64,000 bases of DNA, from assembly GCA_030640025.1 (NCBI GenBank), contig DAOWKC010000002.1, forward strand, positions 4,029 through 68,028, read 5' to 3'. A program made the translations under genes and the position numbers. Source of the stretch: Candidatus Woesearchaeota archaeon (GTDB lineage Archaea > Nanobdellota > Nanobdellia > Woesearchaeales > JAGLXL01). Positions 3,606-58,595 of the stretch are shown here, piece by piece. Numbering within the stretch: position 1 is the stretch's first letter; each line of letters starts with the position of its first letter. The notes under the pieces were generated by a model. The model worked only from the letters and a program-made list of their open reading frames with translations, ran no database searches and was not told the DNA's origin.

Positions 3606-3683
3606 TGGAAGCCCCCGAGGAGATTTGAACTCCCGACCCTCAGTTTACGAGACTGATGCTCTGCCGGACTGAGCTACAGGGGC
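3606..3683 (-). tRNA. tRNA-Thr(CGT)
   Basis: The reverse complement folds as a cloverleaf: acceptor GCCCCUG/CGGGGGC, D-arm GUAGCUCAGUCCGGCAGAGC, anticodon stem UCAGU/ACUGA with loop CUCGUAA (anticodon CGU), and T-arm GGGAGUUCAAAUCUCC. CCA is not encoded separately, because the start codon of the radical SAM gene abuts it. Confidence 0.8.
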
Positions 3684-16222: not shown

Positions 16223-16957
16223 TTACTTTAGAACTTTTCTGGTGATGATTATAAATCCTGTATGTCCAAGCATTTGAAAGTCTGGTCTGACTATTTTGTT
16301 ATTAATGATCCAGTTTCGTTGGATGTTTTCTAGGGTTTTGAGGTAGAAAAGTTTTTTTGAAGATTTAATTTGTTCTACGAATTGAGTGACTTGGGTGATG
16401 GTTGGTAAGTAAGTTATTAGGAAAGCTCCTGGTTTTAATGATTTTTCTGCGTGTTTGATGACATGCCATGGTTCTGGTAAATCTAGAGTGATAAGGTCAA
16501 GATTTTTTTCAGTGATGCCCTTGGTGATATCTTTGTTTTTGATTGTCAGATTTTTTAATTCGAAAAGTTTTTGGTTTTCTTTGATGATTTTGATGAAATC
16601 TTTTCTGATTTCATAGCAATAAACTTTTTTGGCTATGTTGGCTAGGAAGCATGAGAGGGAGCCGGAGCCACCACCGGCGTCTAGGACGACTGAGTTTTTG
16701 TTGATGCCAGTTTCAGTGATGATAGTGCCAATGTCTTTGGGTGTGATGATTTGCGGACCACGCTTTATTTTTTTGAATTTGTCTGTGAAAGAGGGTTCTA
16801 AGATATACATCTCTGTTTTTTTATTGGTTTTGATGATGGTGTTTGATTTTTTTAAATCTGATTTTTTGATAAAGCCGAATTTAGTGTGATAGTCCTGGTC
16901 TAAGTTTTTGACAAAGAATTCTTGGCCAGTTTTGGTTAAAAGTATTTTTTGGATCAT
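16223..16957 (-). CDS. trmI: tRNA (adenine-N1)-methyltransferase TrmI/Gcd14 family
   Basis: SAM-binding VLDAGGGSGSLSCFLA motif, about 244 aa, with the overall TrmI layout. Confidence 0.7.
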   Translation of the reverse strand: MIQKILLTKTGQEFFVKNLDQDYHTKFGFIKKSDLKKSNTIIKTNKKTEMYILEPSFTDKFKKIKRGPQIITPKDIGTIITETGINKNSVVLDAGGGSGSLSCFLANIAKKVYCYEIRKDFIKIIKENQKLFELKNLTIKNKDITKGITEKNLDLITLDLPEPWHVIKHAEKSLKPGAFLITYLPTITQVTQFVEQIKSSKKLFYLKTLENIQRNWIINNKIVRPDFQMLGHTGFIIITRKVLK

Positions 16958-17752: not shown

Positions 17753-17867
17753 AGCACGGGATGGGATTCGAACCCATGAATAACCGGGATCTGCATATCA
17801 CAGCCCAAAAGCTCAACATCCCAGATTGATTGCAGCCGGTCCCTTTAGACCACTTAGGCACCCGTGC
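17753..17867 (-). tRNA. tRNA-Cys(GCA) with a 41-nt intron at the canonical 37/38 position
   Basis: Reverse-complement features: acceptor GCACGGG/CCCGUGC, anticodon stem ACCGG/CCGGU, loop CUGCAA[intron]C (anticodon GCA), T-arm AUGGGUUCGAAUCCCAU, discriminator U. Confidence 0.75.
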
Positions 17868-17876
17868 TTGAAAAAC

Positions 17877-18013
17877 GGACCCGAGGGGACTGTCAAGCTG
17901 GCGCTTTCGGTCGTTGTCGACCTTGTCGCCAACTATTTGAACCCCCGATCTACAGCTTAGAAGGCTTTAGCGGGATTTTTCCTGTCGCCTTATCCAGACT
18001 AGGCTACGGGTCC
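17877..18013 (-). tRNA. tRNA-Arg(TCT) interrupted by two non-canonical introns (about 17 nt in the anticodon stem near 30/31, about 46 nt in the T-loop near 59/60)
   Basis: The reverse complement starts GGACCCGUAGCCUAGUCUGGAUAAGGC and ends GGGGGUUCAAAU[46 nt]CCCCUCGGGUCC. Removing GAAAAAUCCCGCUAAAG gives anticodon arm ACAGC-CUUCUAA-GCUGU (anticodon UCU). The spliced length is 74 nt with a perfect cloverleaf. Confidence 0.6.
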
Positions 18014-18057
18014 TTAACGAGAAAAAATTAGAATGCAGTTTAAATATGTTTCGGGAA

Positions 18058-31827: not shown

Positions 31828-32148
31828 TTATGGGTAGGCTAGACATAGCTTATCTGGTTTGGAAAGGCTAGGCTGGATCGTTAGCCGTGATCTATAACCA
31901 CAAATTGGCTATATGGTGGAGCTGAAATCCAAGAGGCGGTATATTTTACTGGCTATTGGCCTTGACCTTACCGTCGAAGCCCTGTCCTATAGGATTGTGG
32001 CTATGTGAATCGCATCAGGCCAGGAATGGAGCAGTGCTTAGCGTAGTTCTCAATGTTTATAGGGTCGCAGAGTGGAGGTGGGTTTAAGGATTAACCAATA
32101 GTTGGTTAATGTATCCACTTTTGGATGTGCCCCATAATACCATGAACA
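31828..32148 (+). ncRNA. ffs: signal recognition particle RNA (7S / SRP RNA)
   Basis: TATA box TTTTATAAAGGG at 31801, about 25 nt upstream. Conserved helix-8 apex CAGG-CCA-GGAA-UGG-AGCAG (compare the E. coli 4.5S CAGGUCCGGAAGGAAGCAGC): a GGAA tetraloop on a 3-bp stem flanked by the symmetric loop. The 5' GGUUAUGGG pairs with the 3' CCCCAUAAUACC (helix 1/5 closure). Length about 320 nt. Confidence 0.6.
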
Positions 32149-32236
32149 AACAAATTTACCTGACGTCTTGTGGAGCACAACCCACTGGACAAGTCCTCAC
32201 GCAGGATATTTAAAAGATAAATTCTTATTAAATTTC

Positions 32237-32974
32237 ATGAATAAAATTAAGTATGAGAGATTTGAAAATATTATTATAGAAAATGGATTAATGAGAGTAG
32301 CAAGGTCTCCTCATAAATTAAAAATCCCTGTTTTAGATTCTGATTTGGCTTATTTGACTGGATATCATTTGGGTGATGGCTATCTGGAGGATATTGAAAA
32401 AACATATGGGAGAGGAGAACAAAATTATGAAATTACTTATGGTGATTTTGATTTGGAACAAATCAAGTTAGTTAGTTTGATTATCAAAGATAAATTTGAT
32501 TTTAATTTAAGAGTTTTCAAAAGGAAAAATACTAATATGTGGGTTGGCAAGGCTGGTTCATGTAAAGTTCTTCATTGGTTTTTGAATAAACAGTTAAAAA
32601 TTCCAATGGGGAAAAAGAACATAATTTCTATTCCTGGTTGGATCTTGTCTGATAGATATTTTATGAGTAATTTTTTAAGTGGTTTTTTTGATGCTGAGGC
32701 TGATATAAGTAAAACTATCAATCGTGTTGTTAATGATAAAAGGTATTTTAAAATTAGATTTCAATTAACACAGAAAGATAGAACTATTCTAGAGGAAATT
32801 AAAGAAATTTTGAAAGGAAGATATAGTATTAAATCAGATATCCAAAGAAAATGGAATCAAGATGTATTCATTCTTAGATTTGTTGGGAAAAAATCCTCAT
32901 TAATTTTTCAAAAGAAAATAAATTTTAGAAATCCTACGAAAAGAAAGAAACTTGATTTATTGTTAAGAGACTGA
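32237..32974 (+). CDS. free-standing LAGLIDADG homing endonuclease-like protein
   Basis: Two LAGLIDADG motifs: LAYLTGYHLGDGY and FLSGFFDAEADI. Start placed at MNKIKYERF, because the upstream extension of the ORF overlaps the SRP RNA 3' end. Confidence 0.7.
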   Translation: MNKIKYERFENIIIENGLMRVARSPHKLKIPVLDSDLAYLTGYHLGDGYLEDIEKTYGRGEQNYEITYGDFDLEQIKLVSLIIKDKFDFNLRVFKRKNTNMWVGKAGSCKVLHWFLNKQLKIPMGKKNIISIPGWILSDRYFMSNFLSGFFDAEADISKTINRVVNDKRYFKIRFQLTQKDRTILEEIKEILKGRYSIKSDIQRKWNQDVFILRFVGKKSSLIFQKKINFRNPTKRKKLDLLLRD

Positions 32975-38134: not shown

Positions 38135-38233
38135 TGCGGGAGACGGGGTTTGAACCCGCGCAGGCACTAAGCCACTAGGCTTTTGCTGATGACATCCTCA
38201 ACCTAGCCCGTTTGACCACTCCGGCACCCCCGC
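38135..38233 (-). tRNA. tRNA-Leu(GAG), class II, with a 15-nt canonical intron
   Basis: Reverse-complement features: acceptor GCGGGGG/CUCCCGC, 3-bp D-stem, anticodon stem CUAGG/CCUAG with loop UUGAGG[intron AUGUCAUCAGCAAAA]G (anticodon GAG), long variable arm UGGCUUAGUGCCUGC, T-arm GCGGGUUCAAACCCCGU. Confidence 0.75.
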
Positions 38234-41773: not shown

Positions 41774-44395
41774 TTATTCTTTTTTGAACCTTGATTTAAT
41801 CAAAGCAAAATTAACCGGGTTCTTAATCTTCTTGCATAAAGGTTCAGGATGGCAGACATTGAAGGATTTGTAGTAGTCTGGGTGGCTGCAGTTTGGCGGG
41901 AGGATGGGTTTTTTGTTTTTGGCGCTGTTAAGCTGGCCAAGGAGAATATTTTCTCTGAGAGATTCAGGTTGATTTCTTTTGTTCCAGTCCAAGAGAAATG
42001 ATTTGATTTCTTCATGACCCCAACCGCATTTTTTTAAGAAATTAATGAGGATGAAAGTGGAACGTTTTTTGCCGTCTTCGAGTCCTTTGAGGATTCGATG
42101 AATGCAAGGAGGAAAGCAATTTTCTGGAATGGCATTTTCTGGTAAAGGCATTTCTCGTCTTTGGATTTGTATTTCTTCTTCTGGCATTTTGAAATCAAAG
42201 GCTTGAACTAGCAAGGATTTGGCTTCATTAGGTTGGGCTTTTTTGTCAAGGAAAACAAACTCTGAAACTGGGCAGCCTGGTTTGGCCTGGTTTTTGGTGA
42301 ATTCTAATATTTTTTTGGGGTTGATGGGTATGGAGACAAGACCTGATTTTTCATGTAAAGAATAAGGAGCACGGTAAAGGTGTCTCGATGAAATTAATAA
42401 GGTGTCGATTTCTAAAAAAGGTTCAACATCTAAAGCAGGGATTTGTTCACCAAATTCATTTCTTTGGTAGCGGATAATATTTTTGGTTTCCAGGCCGGTT
42501 TTTTCCTTGATTTTGTTGAAATCACTATTTTCTAATTTGAGGATTTGCCGGCTGAGCGGGTTTTTGATTTTTTCAGTAATGTAGAAAGCGATCCTTCGGG
42601 GTGCTTCGGGAAAAAGGTCTTTTATTTCTTGGTTATTGATTTTTTCTGGAAAGGCTTCAAAAGGAACAGCAATATGGAAGCCTTTGTTGCCAGAATTGTG
42701 CAGTAAAACAGGATAAACGCCACCAAAAAAAGCCTCAGTGTCTGATACTGAAACATCATAAACATTTTCTTTTTTACTTTTTACCATTTTTTTAATTTTA
42801 ACAGTAGCGATGTCATTATTGAACAATTTTTTGTAGTTTGAAATGATTTTCTTTGATTGATAATCATAATCAATAGATTTAGTTTTATCAAACCAGTCTA
42901 AGATTTTTTTTATTCTCTTTAGATTAGCTGATTTTTTCTTGAGACTCATCTGTTCTGTCCTGTGGTGGTTGAATTTTTTTGGTTTGATCTGATGATAGAC
43001 CTGCCTCAAGCCATCGACAGGGAAAACTTTGTCATGAGGATGTGGAGAAAATTTATTTCTTTCCCTGAAAAACTCATTTGAATTTAGTTCTGATTTAGGG
43101 ATATTCATAGTATAAACATGACTGCCTTTGAAGATGTTTCCTTGAGGTAATTCATGCTCCCTGCAAAATTCTTGATTGACAGAACACGAAATTCCATTCA
43201 ATTTAGATAGCCATACCAATTGAGTGATCAATTGATGAGAAACAGATTTTATTGTAATTGAATATTGGCCACGTTTATAACCATCTCCTCTGATGTAACT
43301 TTTTAACATCTCTTCGAAATACTCCTTAGGCAACTCCCAAGAAAACTCAGGAACATGCTTATTTTTTGCTCCCTTACCACAGCTTTTTTCAAAAAAATGA
43401 TACCATTCTTTTGAATGAATTAAGATTTGTGTCGTTTTGGGATTTGGATGTCTGATTGAAATAAATCTTTTGGTAAATCTTTTCAATAAATTAACACAAT
43501 CAGAAATATAATCTTTTTCGTCGATGTGAAAAGAAAAACCTATTTGATATATTGTTTTAGTGATATGGCCTTCAGCCAGATAGTAGCCCAATAATCTCAT
43601 TAAATCCCTGTTTATTTTAATTTCCCTTTTAGTTGGCTTTTTATTATAATCAAATTCCCAACTAAAATATTCTGGTTCTTTTGTTAGATTATTTGAACTA
43701 TTAAAAGTAATCAATTCATCAGAATCTTTTAATTCATTTACTTTTTTTTGGATAATAAAACCCCTGTTCCAGACAAAAACTGAATGGTGTTTGGTGGCTT
43801 TGATAGGTATTGTGCTATGGGCATGGTGGATTTCATAAATTTTCTCTTTATGGGTCAAATAGTCGTATACTTTAGAAAAACAAACTTTTCTTCTTTTATT
43901 TAAAGATAAAACTTGGATTTTTTTACCCGATTTATGGAGTTCGATTACTTTGGCAATCGGAACAAGACTAATAGTTTTATCTGTTTTTATTAGTAAGGGT
44001 GTGTCTCCAGTAACACTAAATTTGATAGAATAAGATTTGATTTTGTTGTAGTCAAGGAATTTGATGATTAAGTGAGCAGCTATTTTGGAATATTCAATGA
44101 ATTTACAGTCAATATCAAGGACAAGGTCCCAGCCAATTCTTAAGTTGTCGAGTTCTCTTTTTTTGAGGTCGGGGTTGAGTTGGAGGGGATTAAGCCAGCG
44201 TTCTTCTGAAGTATGAAAAGAAGTAGCGCCTTTTTTAGCTAATTCAAGAATATCATTAGGGTATTGTAAGATGTCAGGGCGTTTGCCGAATTTGTCTTCG
44301 TATCGAACGGTTGTTTCCCTACTTTCGACATGTTCAATCATGGCTTTTTGAATATCTTTTCTCTTGTAATGCTTGAGAAGGGTTGAGATATGCAT
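41774..44395 (-). CDS. priSL: fused archaeo-eukaryotic primase PriS-PriL (small catalytic subunit plus large-subunit Fe-S C-terminal domain), interrupted by an intein
   Basis: N-extein carries AEP motif I LVLDIDC. The C-extein starts with motif II SGNKGFHIAVP and ends with a PriL-CTD-like region CFPPCIHRILKGL...CGW...C...C (compare FPPCM of eukaryotic PriL). Extein total 432 aa. Confidence 0.8.
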   Translation of the reverse strand: MHISTLLKHYKRKDIQKAMIEHVESRETTVRYEDKFGKRPDILQYPNDILELAKKGATSFHTSEERWLNPLQLNPDLKKRELDNLRIGWDLVLDIDCKFIEYSKIAAHLIIKFLDYNKIKSYSIKFSVTGDTPLLIKTDKTISLVPIAKVIELHKSGKKIQVLSLNKRRKVCFSKVYDYLTHKEKIYEIHHAHSTIPIKATKHHSVFVWNRGFIIQKKVNELKDSDELITFNSSNNLTKEPEYFSWEFDYNKKPTKREIKINRDLMRLLGYYLAEGHITKTIYQIGFSFHIDEKDYISDCVNLLKRFTKRFISIRHPNPKTTQILIHSKEWYHFFEKSCGKGAKNKHVPEFSWELPKEYFEEMLKSYIRGDGYKRGQYSITIKSVSHQLITQLVWLSKLNGISCSVNQEFCREHELPQGNIFKGSHVYTMNIPKSELNSNEFFRERNKFSPHPHDKVFPVDGLRQVYHQIKPKKFNHHRTEQMSLKKKSANLKRIKKILDWFDKTKSIDYDYQSKKIISNYKKLFNNDIATVKIKKMVKSKKENVYDVSVSDTEAFFGGVYPVLLHNSGNKGFHIAVPFEAFPEKINNQEIKDLFPEAPRRIAFYITEKIKNPLSRQILKLENSDFNKIKEKTGLETKNIIRYQRNEFGEQIPALDVEPFLEIDTLLISSRHLYRAPYSLHEKSGLVSIPINPKKILEFTKNQAKPGCPVSEFVFLDKKAQPNEAKSLLVQAFDFKMPEEEIQIQRREMPLPENAIPENCFPPCIHRILKGLEDGKKRSTFILINFLKKCGWGHEEIKSFLLDWNKRNQPESLRENILLGQLNSAKNKKPILPPNCSHPDYYKSFNVCHPEPLCKKIKNPVNFALIKSRFKKE
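42695..44017 (-). mobile_element. 441-aa intein with LAGLIDADG homing endonuclease domain, inserted between F126 and S of the primase SGxxGxH motif
   Basis: Block A SVTGDTPLL (Ser1), block G VYDVSVSDTEAFFGGVYPVLLHN followed by +1 Ser, and LAGLIDADG motifs LLGYYLAEGHI and YIRGDGYKRG inside. Confidence 0.8.
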
Positions 44396-58277: not shown

Positions 58278-58352
58278 TTTTCAATTATGTTTAGAACACG
58301 CTCCGATTATGAGGTTGGCGAAGATTTAACTTATAAATCTTTCGTAATATTA

Positions 58353-58375
58353 AATGCGGGCGGCAGGGTTCCCAC
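58353..58375 (-). repeat. duplicated fragment of the 3' end of the adjacent class II tRNA (AACCCTGCCGCCCGCATTTAA)
   Basis: A 22-nt exact direct repeat of 58424..58445, placed about 50 nt beyond the tRNA 3' end. Confidence 0.6.
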
Positions 58376-58426
58376 GTCAGAACCCTTGGTTCCGACACCT
58401 CCCCTCGCTCCGCTCGGAAATTTAAA

Positions 58427-58595
58427 TGCGGGCGGCAGGGTTCGAACCTGCGTAGGCACTAAGCCAACAGATGACTTACGAATGGTTCTTCATCGCACTG
58501 CGATTGCAGCACTCTGCACTCAAATGCCTTGAGTTAAGACGACACACAGTTCAACTGTGAGTTACTGTCCCGTTTGGCCACTCCGGCACGCCCGC
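58427..58595 (-). tRNA. class II tRNA (Leu-like D- and variable arms) carrying about 84 nt of intervening sequence; anticodon unresolved
   Basis: The reverse complement has a perfect acceptor GCGGGCG/CGCCCGC, a D-arm identical to tRNA-Leu(GAG) (UGCCGGAGUGGCCAAACGGG), variable arm UGGCUUAGUGCCUAC and T-arm GCAGGUUCGAACCCUGC. An insert begins right after GACAG, at the same place as the intron in the tRNA-Arg at 17877. Confidence 0.55.

Follow-up and report, generated by a model that had tools for sequence, protein, structure and literature searches.

A tRNA-Arg(UCU) gene with two putative bulge-helix-bulge introns in a Woesearchaeota-type DPANN archaeon

Introduction

The DNA analyzed in this study (the window) is a 64,000-nucleotide (nt) stretch of contig DAOWKC010000002.1 from a Candidatus Woesearchaeota archaeon. 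Its minus strand carries, at 17876-18013, a tRNA-Arg(UCU) gene broken by two inserts, and the locus raises the question of whether these inserts are introns of a working gene or scars in a decaying one. Standard detectors do not report the locus. In the unspliced sequence, no tRNA was found by ARAGORN, in either default or intron mode, or by Rfam, at the gathering threshold or at E<=10; the weak Rfam matches there were a microRNA and a long non-coding RNA, both regarded as chance. In the whole window, the sole tRNA called by ARAGORN was a tRNA-Thr at 3610-3683, and Rfam called tRNAs at 3610-3683, 17753-17867, and 38135-38233. We consider it very likely that the locus is a functional tRNA-Arg(UCU) gene of a Woesearchaeota-like DPANN archaeon, interrupted by two archaeal introns of the bulge-helix-bulge (BHB) type.

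Gene structure and spliced product

In silico splicing and ARAGORN showed that the gene consists of three exons and two introns and spans 138 nt (17876..18013, minus strand), including the discriminator G73 at 17876. From 18013 to 17876, the minus strand reads GGACCCGUAGCCUAGUCUGGAUAAGGCGAC (exon 1), AGGAAAAAUCCCGCUAA (intron 1), AGCCUUCUAAGCUGUAGAUCGGGGGUUCAAA (exon 2), UAGUUGGCGACAAGGUCGACAACGACCGAAAGCGCCAGCUUGACAG (intron 2), and UCCCCUCGGGUCCG (exon 3). Exon 1 (17984..18013) covers tRNA positions 1-28, comprising the acceptor 5′ strand, the D-arm, G26, A27, and C28. Intron 1 (17967..17983, 17 nt) lies at position 28/29, as placed by the BHB rule described below, the orthologues, covariation, shuffles, and the minimum free energy (MFE) fold. 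Exon 2 (17936..17966) covers positions 29-59, with the remaining anticodon stem, the CUUCUAA loop containing UCU, the variable region, the T-stem 5′ strand, and the T-loop from U54 to A59. Intron 2 (17890..17935, 46 nt, UAGUUGGCG...CUUGACAG) lies at position 59/60, as placed by the BHB rule, the orthologues, and energetics. Exon 3 (17876..17889) covers positions 60-73, namely U60, the T-stem 3′ strand CCCCU, the acceptor 3′ strand, and the discriminator G. By direct reading, the gene ends in CCCCU-CGGGUCC-G and begins with a perfect acceptor 5′ strand and D-arm.

Deleting both inserts (17 and 46 nt) gave a 75-nt sequence that ARAGORN called tRNA-Arg(tct). In its cloverleaf, the acceptor stem is 7 bp long, the D-stem 4 bp, and the anticodon stem 5 bp (ACAGC/GCUGU); the anticodon loop is CUUCUAA, and the T-stem, GGGGG/CCCCU, closes a UUCAAAU loop. 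After splicing, every exon stem is fully paired. The predicted spliced junctions join ...GGCGAC to AGCCUUCU... at 28/29 and ...GGUUCAAA to UCCCCU... at 59/60. The spliced product was identical to an intron-less orthologue (L090) at 70 of 75 positions, and both junction sequences were the same. A preliminary description of the locus had named the two inserts, the perfect acceptor and D arms, the T-stem, and the UCU anticodon, and our direct reading of the minus strand agrees on each. The textbook tRNA-Arg(UCU) that it expected after removal of the inserts was accepted by ARAGORN, and the unspliced locus was missed; the product is 75 nt long rather than 74 nt. The locus was correctly positioned, but an end at 17877 had left out the discriminator G, so the span becomes 138 nt.

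The spliced tRNA carries the UCU anticodon and A20, which we take to be an arginine identity element. AGA is the commonest arginine codon in 29 Pfam-supported open reading frames (ORFs) of the window, with 44% of arginine codons, and AGA and AGG together account for 58%. No second copy of tRNA-Arg(UCU) was found within the 64-kb window. The exons are colinear, contiguous, and in order on one strand within 138 nt, as in a multiple-intron tRNA gene. A split or permuted tRNA gene was ruled out by the same contiguity and order of the three exons.

Splice sites of the two introns

The splice sites were located with an encoded BHB rule: a 4-bp helix H lies between two 3-nt bulges, which are cut after their second base, and is framed by an outer (h) and an inner (h′) helix. 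Calibration used the adjoining tRNA-Cys(GCA) and also the tRNA-Leu(GAG) of the window. The canonical 37/38 intron of tRNA-Cys(GCA) was reproduced precisely (41 nt; H CUGC/GCAG, 4/4 paired; h of 6 bp). In the tRNA-Arg precursor, the rule found motifs exactly at the two sites that restore the 75-nt cloverleaf. A loose BHB scan by itself is uninformative, yielding dozens of chance motifs per 100 nt, and product compatibility, shuffle nulls, and comparative data were therefore demanded. When each intron was shuffled and the exons were kept, an equally good motif at the required boundary occurred with P ~1.5e-5 per intron. The unconstrained MFE of the 138-nt precursor was -56.4 kcal/mol (z = -4.4), and none of 200 shuffles was as stable. 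The MFE fold includes the acceptor stem, the H of intron 1 with its ACA bulge and h′, the T-stem, and the 8-bp h′ of intron 2 with its inner hairpin.

Intron 1 would be cut after C28 and after ...CGCUAA. Its helix H pairs G23-G26 (17986-17989) with CGCU (17969-17972) as GGCG/CGCU, with 4/4 pairs. The 5′ bulge is AC^A (3 nt), and the inner helix h′ is GGA/UCC (3 bp). The outer helix is absent (h = 0), and the 3′ cut, AA^A, sits in an internal loop instead of a closed bulge. Intron 1 without an outer helix is therefore a relaxed HBh′ motif, departing from the strict 3-4-3 hBHBh′ form; h was 0 in all 18 genes with an intron at 28/29, the window included. H borrows the 3′ strand of the D-stem together with G26, so the D-stem must open in the precursor. 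Boundaries at 28/29, 29/30, and 30/31 all give an identical product, and the BHB rule picks 28/29. The sequence GGCGACAGG at the junction of exon 1 and intron 1 resembles GGCGACAAGG inside intron 2, which was treated as chance.

Intron 2 would be cut after A59 and after ...UUGACAG. Here the 5-bp T-stem serves as h, AA^U and AG^U form the bulges, and h′ has 8 bp and an inner 5-bp hairpin. H is formed by U54-A57 (UUCA) against UGAC and is 3/4 paired, with a U54xC mismatch. This is a near-strict hBHBh′ motif; the mismatch widens the 3′ bulge to 4 nt and thereby takes the motif out of the strict form. A kink-turn or a C/D-box small RNA was also considered for the 46-nt intron and the tRNA-Cys intron. 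Inspection by eye found no GA/AG tandem beside a stem and no convincing C or D box in either intron, and this candidate was rejected.

Orthologous loci and covariation

Species-representative genomes were scanned for a D-arm followed by a variable gap and CUUCUA. The scan gave at least 120 loci, mostly from Woesearchaeota, Nanoarchaeota, and other DPANN. Intron classes were counted over 121 genes, that is, the 120 loci listed and the window. No intron was present in 49 genes, and a sole intron between positions 32 and 48 (mostly canonical 37/38) was present in 18. The 28/29 intron occurred alone in 10 genes and the T-loop (59/60) intron alone in 9. Eight genes carried both (L004, L010, L028, L042, L075, L115, L119, and the window), and five combined a mid intron with a T-loop intron. 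One gene (L056), apparently a tRNA-Arg(CCU), had an insert between G26 and C32 and a mid insert. The script did not parse the remaining 21 genes. Among the 120 loci listed, a 28/29-type intron was found in 18 (one at 29/30), a 59/60 intron in 21, and both in 7.

The anticodon-stem intron was at 28/29 in 18 of 19 genes, the other being that of L004 at 29/30, and its H was always 4/4 paired as GGCG/CGCY. In four orthologues (L010, L030, L066, and L119), the first intron base is U, which leaves 28/29 as the sole product-compatible site. Position 28/29 is therefore confirmed independently of the BHB rule. The BHB rule and the orthologues thus move the first site from 30/31, as given in the preliminary description, to 28/29, and its second site, 59/60, is retained. 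Folding of the junctions gave a BHB motif at both, relaxed HBh′ at 28/29 and near-strict at 59/60. The same description had called these sites rare, which the counts above contradict for this lineage; 59/60 is moreover a well-known non-canonical site (PMC3239211).

For covariation, the junction cores were aligned in a fixed register, with an artificial AAAA linker connecting them. In the intron 1 alignment, 96.7% of cells were paired, with compensatory double changes in all four h′ pairs. None of 500 shuffles reached its score, and slid registers were 17-55% paired. In the intron 2 alignment (22 genes including the window), h was 100% and H 98.9% paired, and the T-stem covaried. The pair 57:q-5 was A-U in 13 genes and G-C in 8, and the lone unpaired cell of H was the U54xC of the window. 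The 59/60 introns of the 21 orthologues all had H 4/4, a fully paired h, 3-nt bulge spacing, the same register, and a UUCRAAU T-loop. In the fixed register, 51% of the h′ cells of intron 2 were paired, window included. This helix thus differs in register among genomes, and some of the 21 orthologous 59/60 introns may also depart from the strict form. Base-pair covariation supports both predicted intron structures.

Proposed processing and alternative explanations

From the anatomy, cloverleaf, motif statistics, conservation, and covariation observed above, we infer transcription, cleavage by the endonuclease EndA, and ligation in the following order. The gene would be transcribed, probably from an AT-rich promoter about 30 nt upstream and possibly jointly with the tRNA-Cys gene 8 nt downstream. 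The precursor would then fold so that each exon-intron boundary forms a 4-bp helix between bulges. At intron 1, G23-G26 would pair with CGCU near the intron 3′ end, and the D-stem would be opened. At intron 2, U55-A57 of the T-loop would pair with the intron 3′ end, with the T-stem on one side and the 8-bp intron helix on the other. In each bulge, EndA would cleave 3′ of the second base; the three exons would then be joined by an RtcB-type ligase into a 75-nt tRNA reading AGA.

Several points weigh against this reading. Splicing itself is deduced from the sequence. Intron 1 is without an outer helix and competes with the D-stem. Among the 22 introns at 59/60, that of the window alone has a mismatched H (UGAC in place of UGAA), and its 3-bp H is absent from the MFE structure, where adding it costs 1.8 kcal/mol. 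A competing register of intron 2 is nearly isoenergetic, at -53.9 kcal/mol versus -54.6 kcal/mol for the register shared by the family. No EndA or RtcB gene was found in the 64-kb window by the Pfam search of ORFs of at least 120 amino acids (aa), which for EndA was complemented by phmmer. Finally, another copy of tRNA-Arg(UCU) could be located elsewhere in the genome.

The competing register is the basis of one alternative, which we regard as very unlikely. The A-to-C change of the window in H makes this second register possible and weakens the family register. The competing register has a perfect H (UCAA/UUGA, 4/4), a 3-nt 5′ bulge, and a 7-bp h′, and lies within 0.7 kcal/mol of the family register. 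Its cuts would fall after U60 and after ...UUGACA, removing 44 nt and leaving an abnormal 9-nt T-loop, so that the allele would yield such a tRNA or a mixture of products and be partly defective. However, it has no outer helix beside the 3′ bulge (h = 0) and gives a non-canonical T-loop, whereas all 21 orthologues use the 59/60 register, which produces UUCRAAU. Purifying selection on an essential single-copy tRNA also speaks for the canonical product. The family register is favored for intron 2 by all 21 orthologues and by the canonical product that it would release.

Also very unlikely is a decaying tRNA pseudogene, in which the inserts would be insertion scars and AGA/AGG would be decoded by a gene elsewhere. 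The silence of the standard detectors at the locus fits this explanation, as does the H mismatch of intron 2, unique among the 22 orthologues, and the 64 kb examined belong to a scaffold of at least 583 kb. Against it, the exon stems are perfect once spliced, and BHB motifs of the above rarity stand exactly at both junctions. The same two insert sites recur with covarying helices in many independent assemblies, and the position beside the genes for topoisomerase VI subunit A (TopoVI-A) and tRNA-Cys is conserved. The window contains no other copy, and AGA is its main arginine codon. Self-splicing group I or II introns, or mobile-element fragments outside the EndA pathway, are extremely improbable: Woesearchaeota and Pacearchaeota do have group I introns with LAGLIDADG genes (PMC6125680), and LAGLIDADG domains exist elsewhere in the window, but inserts of 17 and 46 nt are far too small for a ribozyme core of a hundred or more nt, no Rfam intron family matched at E<=10, and both inserts show BHB geometry with correct cut sites.

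Splicing endonuclease

Classical α4 and α′2 EndAs require the strict 3-4-3 hBHBh′ and do not cut relaxed motifs, whereas loop-bearing (αβ)2 and ε2 EndAs also accept motifs in which the bulges measure 1-4 nt or a helix is missing (PMC3239211, PMC5829648). Since intron 1 is without an outer helix and intron 2 of the window has an H mismatch with a widened 3′ bulge, a relaxed-specificity endonuclease in the lineage of the window is a plausible and reasonable supposition. The preliminary description had drawn a hint of such an enzyme from the neighboring tRNA-Cys gene as well. The neighbor does bear an intron; the hint falls away, as this intron is canonical (37/38) with a strict BHB.

The Pfam search for EndA and RtcB used E<=1e-5 (E<=1e-3 for the first ten ORFs). 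The phmmer probe was an M. jannaschii EndA sequence, validated against PDB 1a79 (E = 8e-111). EndA genes were found near tRNA-Arg(UCU) in two other Woesearchaeota loci, L108 (1268-1795, minus strand, 175 aa) and L026 (5829-6626, minus strand). In L108, the EndA and tRNA-Arg genes share a strand and about 40 nt of sequence. Both EndAs are single α units with the catalytic Tyr, His, and Lys; they are 37% identical to M. jannaschii EndA and align without gaps with this strict enzyme through the catalytic domain. The tRNA-Arg genes of both loci carry a canonical intron only, so their EndAs neither confirm nor refute a broadened enzyme in the genome of the window.

These two enzymes suggest a further idea, that Woesearchaeota-type DPANN process the relaxed 28/29 intron with a plain single-unit α EndA that lacks any specificity-broadening insert. 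We consider this doubtful. If it were true, the accepted link of EndA inserts and architecture to relaxed-motif cleavage would fail in these archaea. Specificity might then reside in the RNA, for example in the invariant GGCG/CGCY helix that sequesters a D-stem strand.

Mosaic distribution of the introns

The intron states were placed on a rough, approximate neighbor-joining tree of TopoVI-A from the syntenic loci, on which they form a mosaic. The window has both introns, and its sister among the loci listed, L045, has only a different 21-nt intron at 59/60 and no intron 1. L119 and L010 have both introns and L039 has 59/60 alone, and L063 and L011 carry opposite single introns. Such a mosaic implies that introns would have been lost or gained repeatedly. 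A further reading, which we consider doubtful, is that its presence among close relatives reflects ongoing intron mobility into fixed sites.

A 59/60 intron of about 40 nt (UAUCCnnnAGGGAGA...AAAUC...GAUUUGAAAG) is conserved in L004, L010, L019, L060, and L063, which are not mutual nearest relatives. It is possibly a conserved or mobile intron family. The 59/60 intron sequences of the window and L045 are unrelated to it. Some records in the set carry unexpected taxonomic labels. L120 (DATGWN010000029.1), labeled Acidobacteriota, has an archaeal tRNA-Arg(UCU) and TopoVI-A and clusters with DPANN loci, and several "uncultured Methanosarcinales" binchicken loci have DPANN-type gene content and introns. 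Such records were probably mis-binned or mislabeled.

Genomic context and host

The GC content of the window is approximately 36%, and an archaeal signal recognition particle (SRP) RNA is present (31860-32134, plus strand). The window encodes a fused PriS-PriL primase with an intein, a full-length Hef, topoisomerase VI A and B, a RIO kinase, and ribosomal proteins. Exact protein matches place the window on a 583,524-bp scaffold of ENA metagenome assembly ERZ23498665 (BioSample SAMN18200500). The host is a Woesearchaeota-type DPANN archaeon. The closest of the loci listed is L045, from a Candidatus Woesearchaeota metagenome-assembled genome, with 92% identity in TopoVI-B, 86% in TopoVI-A, and 85% in TrmI. 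The two share the gene order TopoVI-B / GNAT / TopoVI-A / tRNA-Arg / tRNA-Cys / DUF3147 / TrmI.

Direct reading of the minus strand revealed an AT-rich TATA-box-like element, AUAUUUAAA (18039..18047), which ends 25 nt upstream of the mature 5′ end and is a candidate archaeal promoter. A scan for sigma-70 promoters and terminators found nothing, and such a scan is not applicable to archaea. An 8-nt spacer, UUUUUCAA (17868..17875, minus strand, direct reading), with a T5 run after the discriminator separates tRNA-Arg from tRNA-Cys. This run may act as a weak archaeal terminator; alternatively, a single transcript may cover both genes. The tRNA-Cys(GCA) gene (17753..17867, minus strand; Rfam tRNA 50.8 bits) contains its canonical 41-nt intron at 17789-17829, which the BHB rule identified as a strict BHB. 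The Arg-Cys tandem also occurs in L029, L069, L081, and L097, and its conservation suggests a dicistronic unit. Two genes downstream of the tRNA pair, a TrmI/GCD14-type tRNA (m1A58) methyltransferase is encoded (16223-16957, minus strand).

The fused PriS-PriL primase ORF (41774-44395, minus strand, 873 aa) is interrupted by an intein with a LAGLIDADG domain. A free-standing ORF with a LAGLIDADG_3 domain (32168-32974, plus strand, 268 aa) starts 34 nt after the SRP RNA. The GC skew of the plus strand was positive in every 4-kb segment (0.00 to 0.40), though genes lie on both strands.

Other intron-bearing tRNA genes of the window

Introns were present in four of the five tRNA genes of the window. 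A tRNA-Leu(CAA) gene with two introns (58427-58595, minus strand, 169 nt) received no call from ARAGORN or Rfam when unspliced, and its spliced 84-nt product was called tRNA-Leu(caa) by ARAGORN. The first intron (58535-58564, 30 nt) lies at 30/31, with H GGAC/GUCU (4/4), and uses the 3′ strand of the D-stem like the Arg intron. The second (58473-58527, 55 nt) lies at the canonical 37/38 with H 3/4. The tRNA-Leu(GAG) gene (38135-38233, minus strand) has a 15-nt canonical 37/38 intron; it scored 44 bits in Rfam and was missed by ARAGORN. The hidden tRNA-Leu(CAA) supports the view that disrupted tRNAs are systematic in the host genome.

Next to tRNA-Leu(CAA), a 30-nt direct repeat was observed (58342-58371 and 58414-58443; 90% identity, 72 nt apart). 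It copies the 3′ end of the gene, from T-loop position 57/58 to 8 nt beyond the gene. Similar short-range duplicates of the tRNA-Arg 3′ end, starting from T-loop positions 58-60, occur in L012, L015, and L088. Integrated elements could have left these duplicates as att-site scars; the duplicates start near the 59/60 intron site.

Comparison with known systems and significance

Multi-intron tRNAs, well documented in Thermoproteales and other archaea (PMC4033280, PMC8450103), and the 59/60 site have been described before, also in the DPANN archaeon ARMAN-2 (Ca. Micrarchaeum). Its pre-tRNA-Cys(GCA) has a 59/60 intron and its pre-tRNA-Pro(GGG) two T-loop introns (Fujishima et al. 2011, PMC3239211), and a 59/60 intron with a relaxed motif was cleaved in vitro (PMC3239211). 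The tRNA-Arg gene of the window resembles this system in its DPANN host, the 59/60 site, more than one BHB intron per tRNA, and one relaxed junction. In both cases, default tRNA finders miss the genes, whereas exon-based searching recovers them. Unlike in ARMAN-2, the tRNA is Arg(UCU), and the introns combine 28/29, in the 5′ strand of the anticodon stem, with 59/60. The EndA of ARMAN-2 is a three-unit ε2 enzyme with an L2 loop, whereas those of the relatives L026 and L108 are single α units.

According to the summaries in PMC4033280 and PMC8450103, tRNAs of Thermoproteales/Crenarchaeota have up to three BHB introns at non-canonical sites (Sugahara et al. 2007, 2008). As far as these summaries go, they also share with the present loci relaxed HBh′/hBH motifs and a mosaic presence among relatives that suggests rapid gain and loss. 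The hosts there belong to TACK and have a heterotetrameric (αβ)2 EndA with the crenarchaeal loop L1, whereas the host of the window is a low-GC DPANN archaeon. The canonical 37/38 strict hBHBh′ introns, such as that of the tRNA-Cys of the window, share this cut geometry, in which a 4-bp helix separates two 3-nt bulges and each bulge is cut 3′ of its second base. Presumably, they are also processed by the enzyme and ligase that would act on the Arg introns. The Arg introns differ from them in their sites (28/29 and 59/60), in the missing outer helix and the unfolding of the D-stem at intron 1, and in the formation of the intron 2 H from T-loop bases.

Kaneta et al. (2018, PMC5829648) associated an α4-type EndA with an L3 loop in DPANN with more frequent disruption of tRNA genes. 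For one genome each of Woesearchaeota and Pacearchaeota, the same study predicted multi-intron and non-canonical tRNAs, given as summary proportions only; it also expected "unidentified disrupted tRNA genes" in DPANN. The tRNA-Arg(UCU) and the hidden tRNA-Leu(CAA) of the window match this expectation. Full-text literature searches, whose reach did not extend to older catalogues of 28/29 introns, returned no description of the conserved woesearchaeal Arg(UCU) pair at 28/29 and 59/60. Nor was a conserved Arg(UCU) 28/29 intron with H built from the 3′ strand of the D-stem described in the literature searched.

The finding leaves the knowledge of tRNA splicing unchanged, and its value is practical and comparative. 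Neither ARAGORN nor the Rfam tRNA model detects the essential Arg(UCU) and Leu(CAA) genes of the window. "Missing tRNAs" have been repeatedly reported in DPANN genome surveys (bioRxiv 10.64898/2026.05.13.725050; remark in PMC5829648), and the invisibility of these two genes provides a concrete explanation for them, of use in annotating DPANN tRNA sets. The mosaic introns among genomes with 80-90% protein identity form a dataset on intron gain and loss. The 28/29 intron is a conserved, covarying family in 18 species-level genomes, and it offers a natural substrate for studying how a DPANN endonuclease may recognize relaxed motifs.

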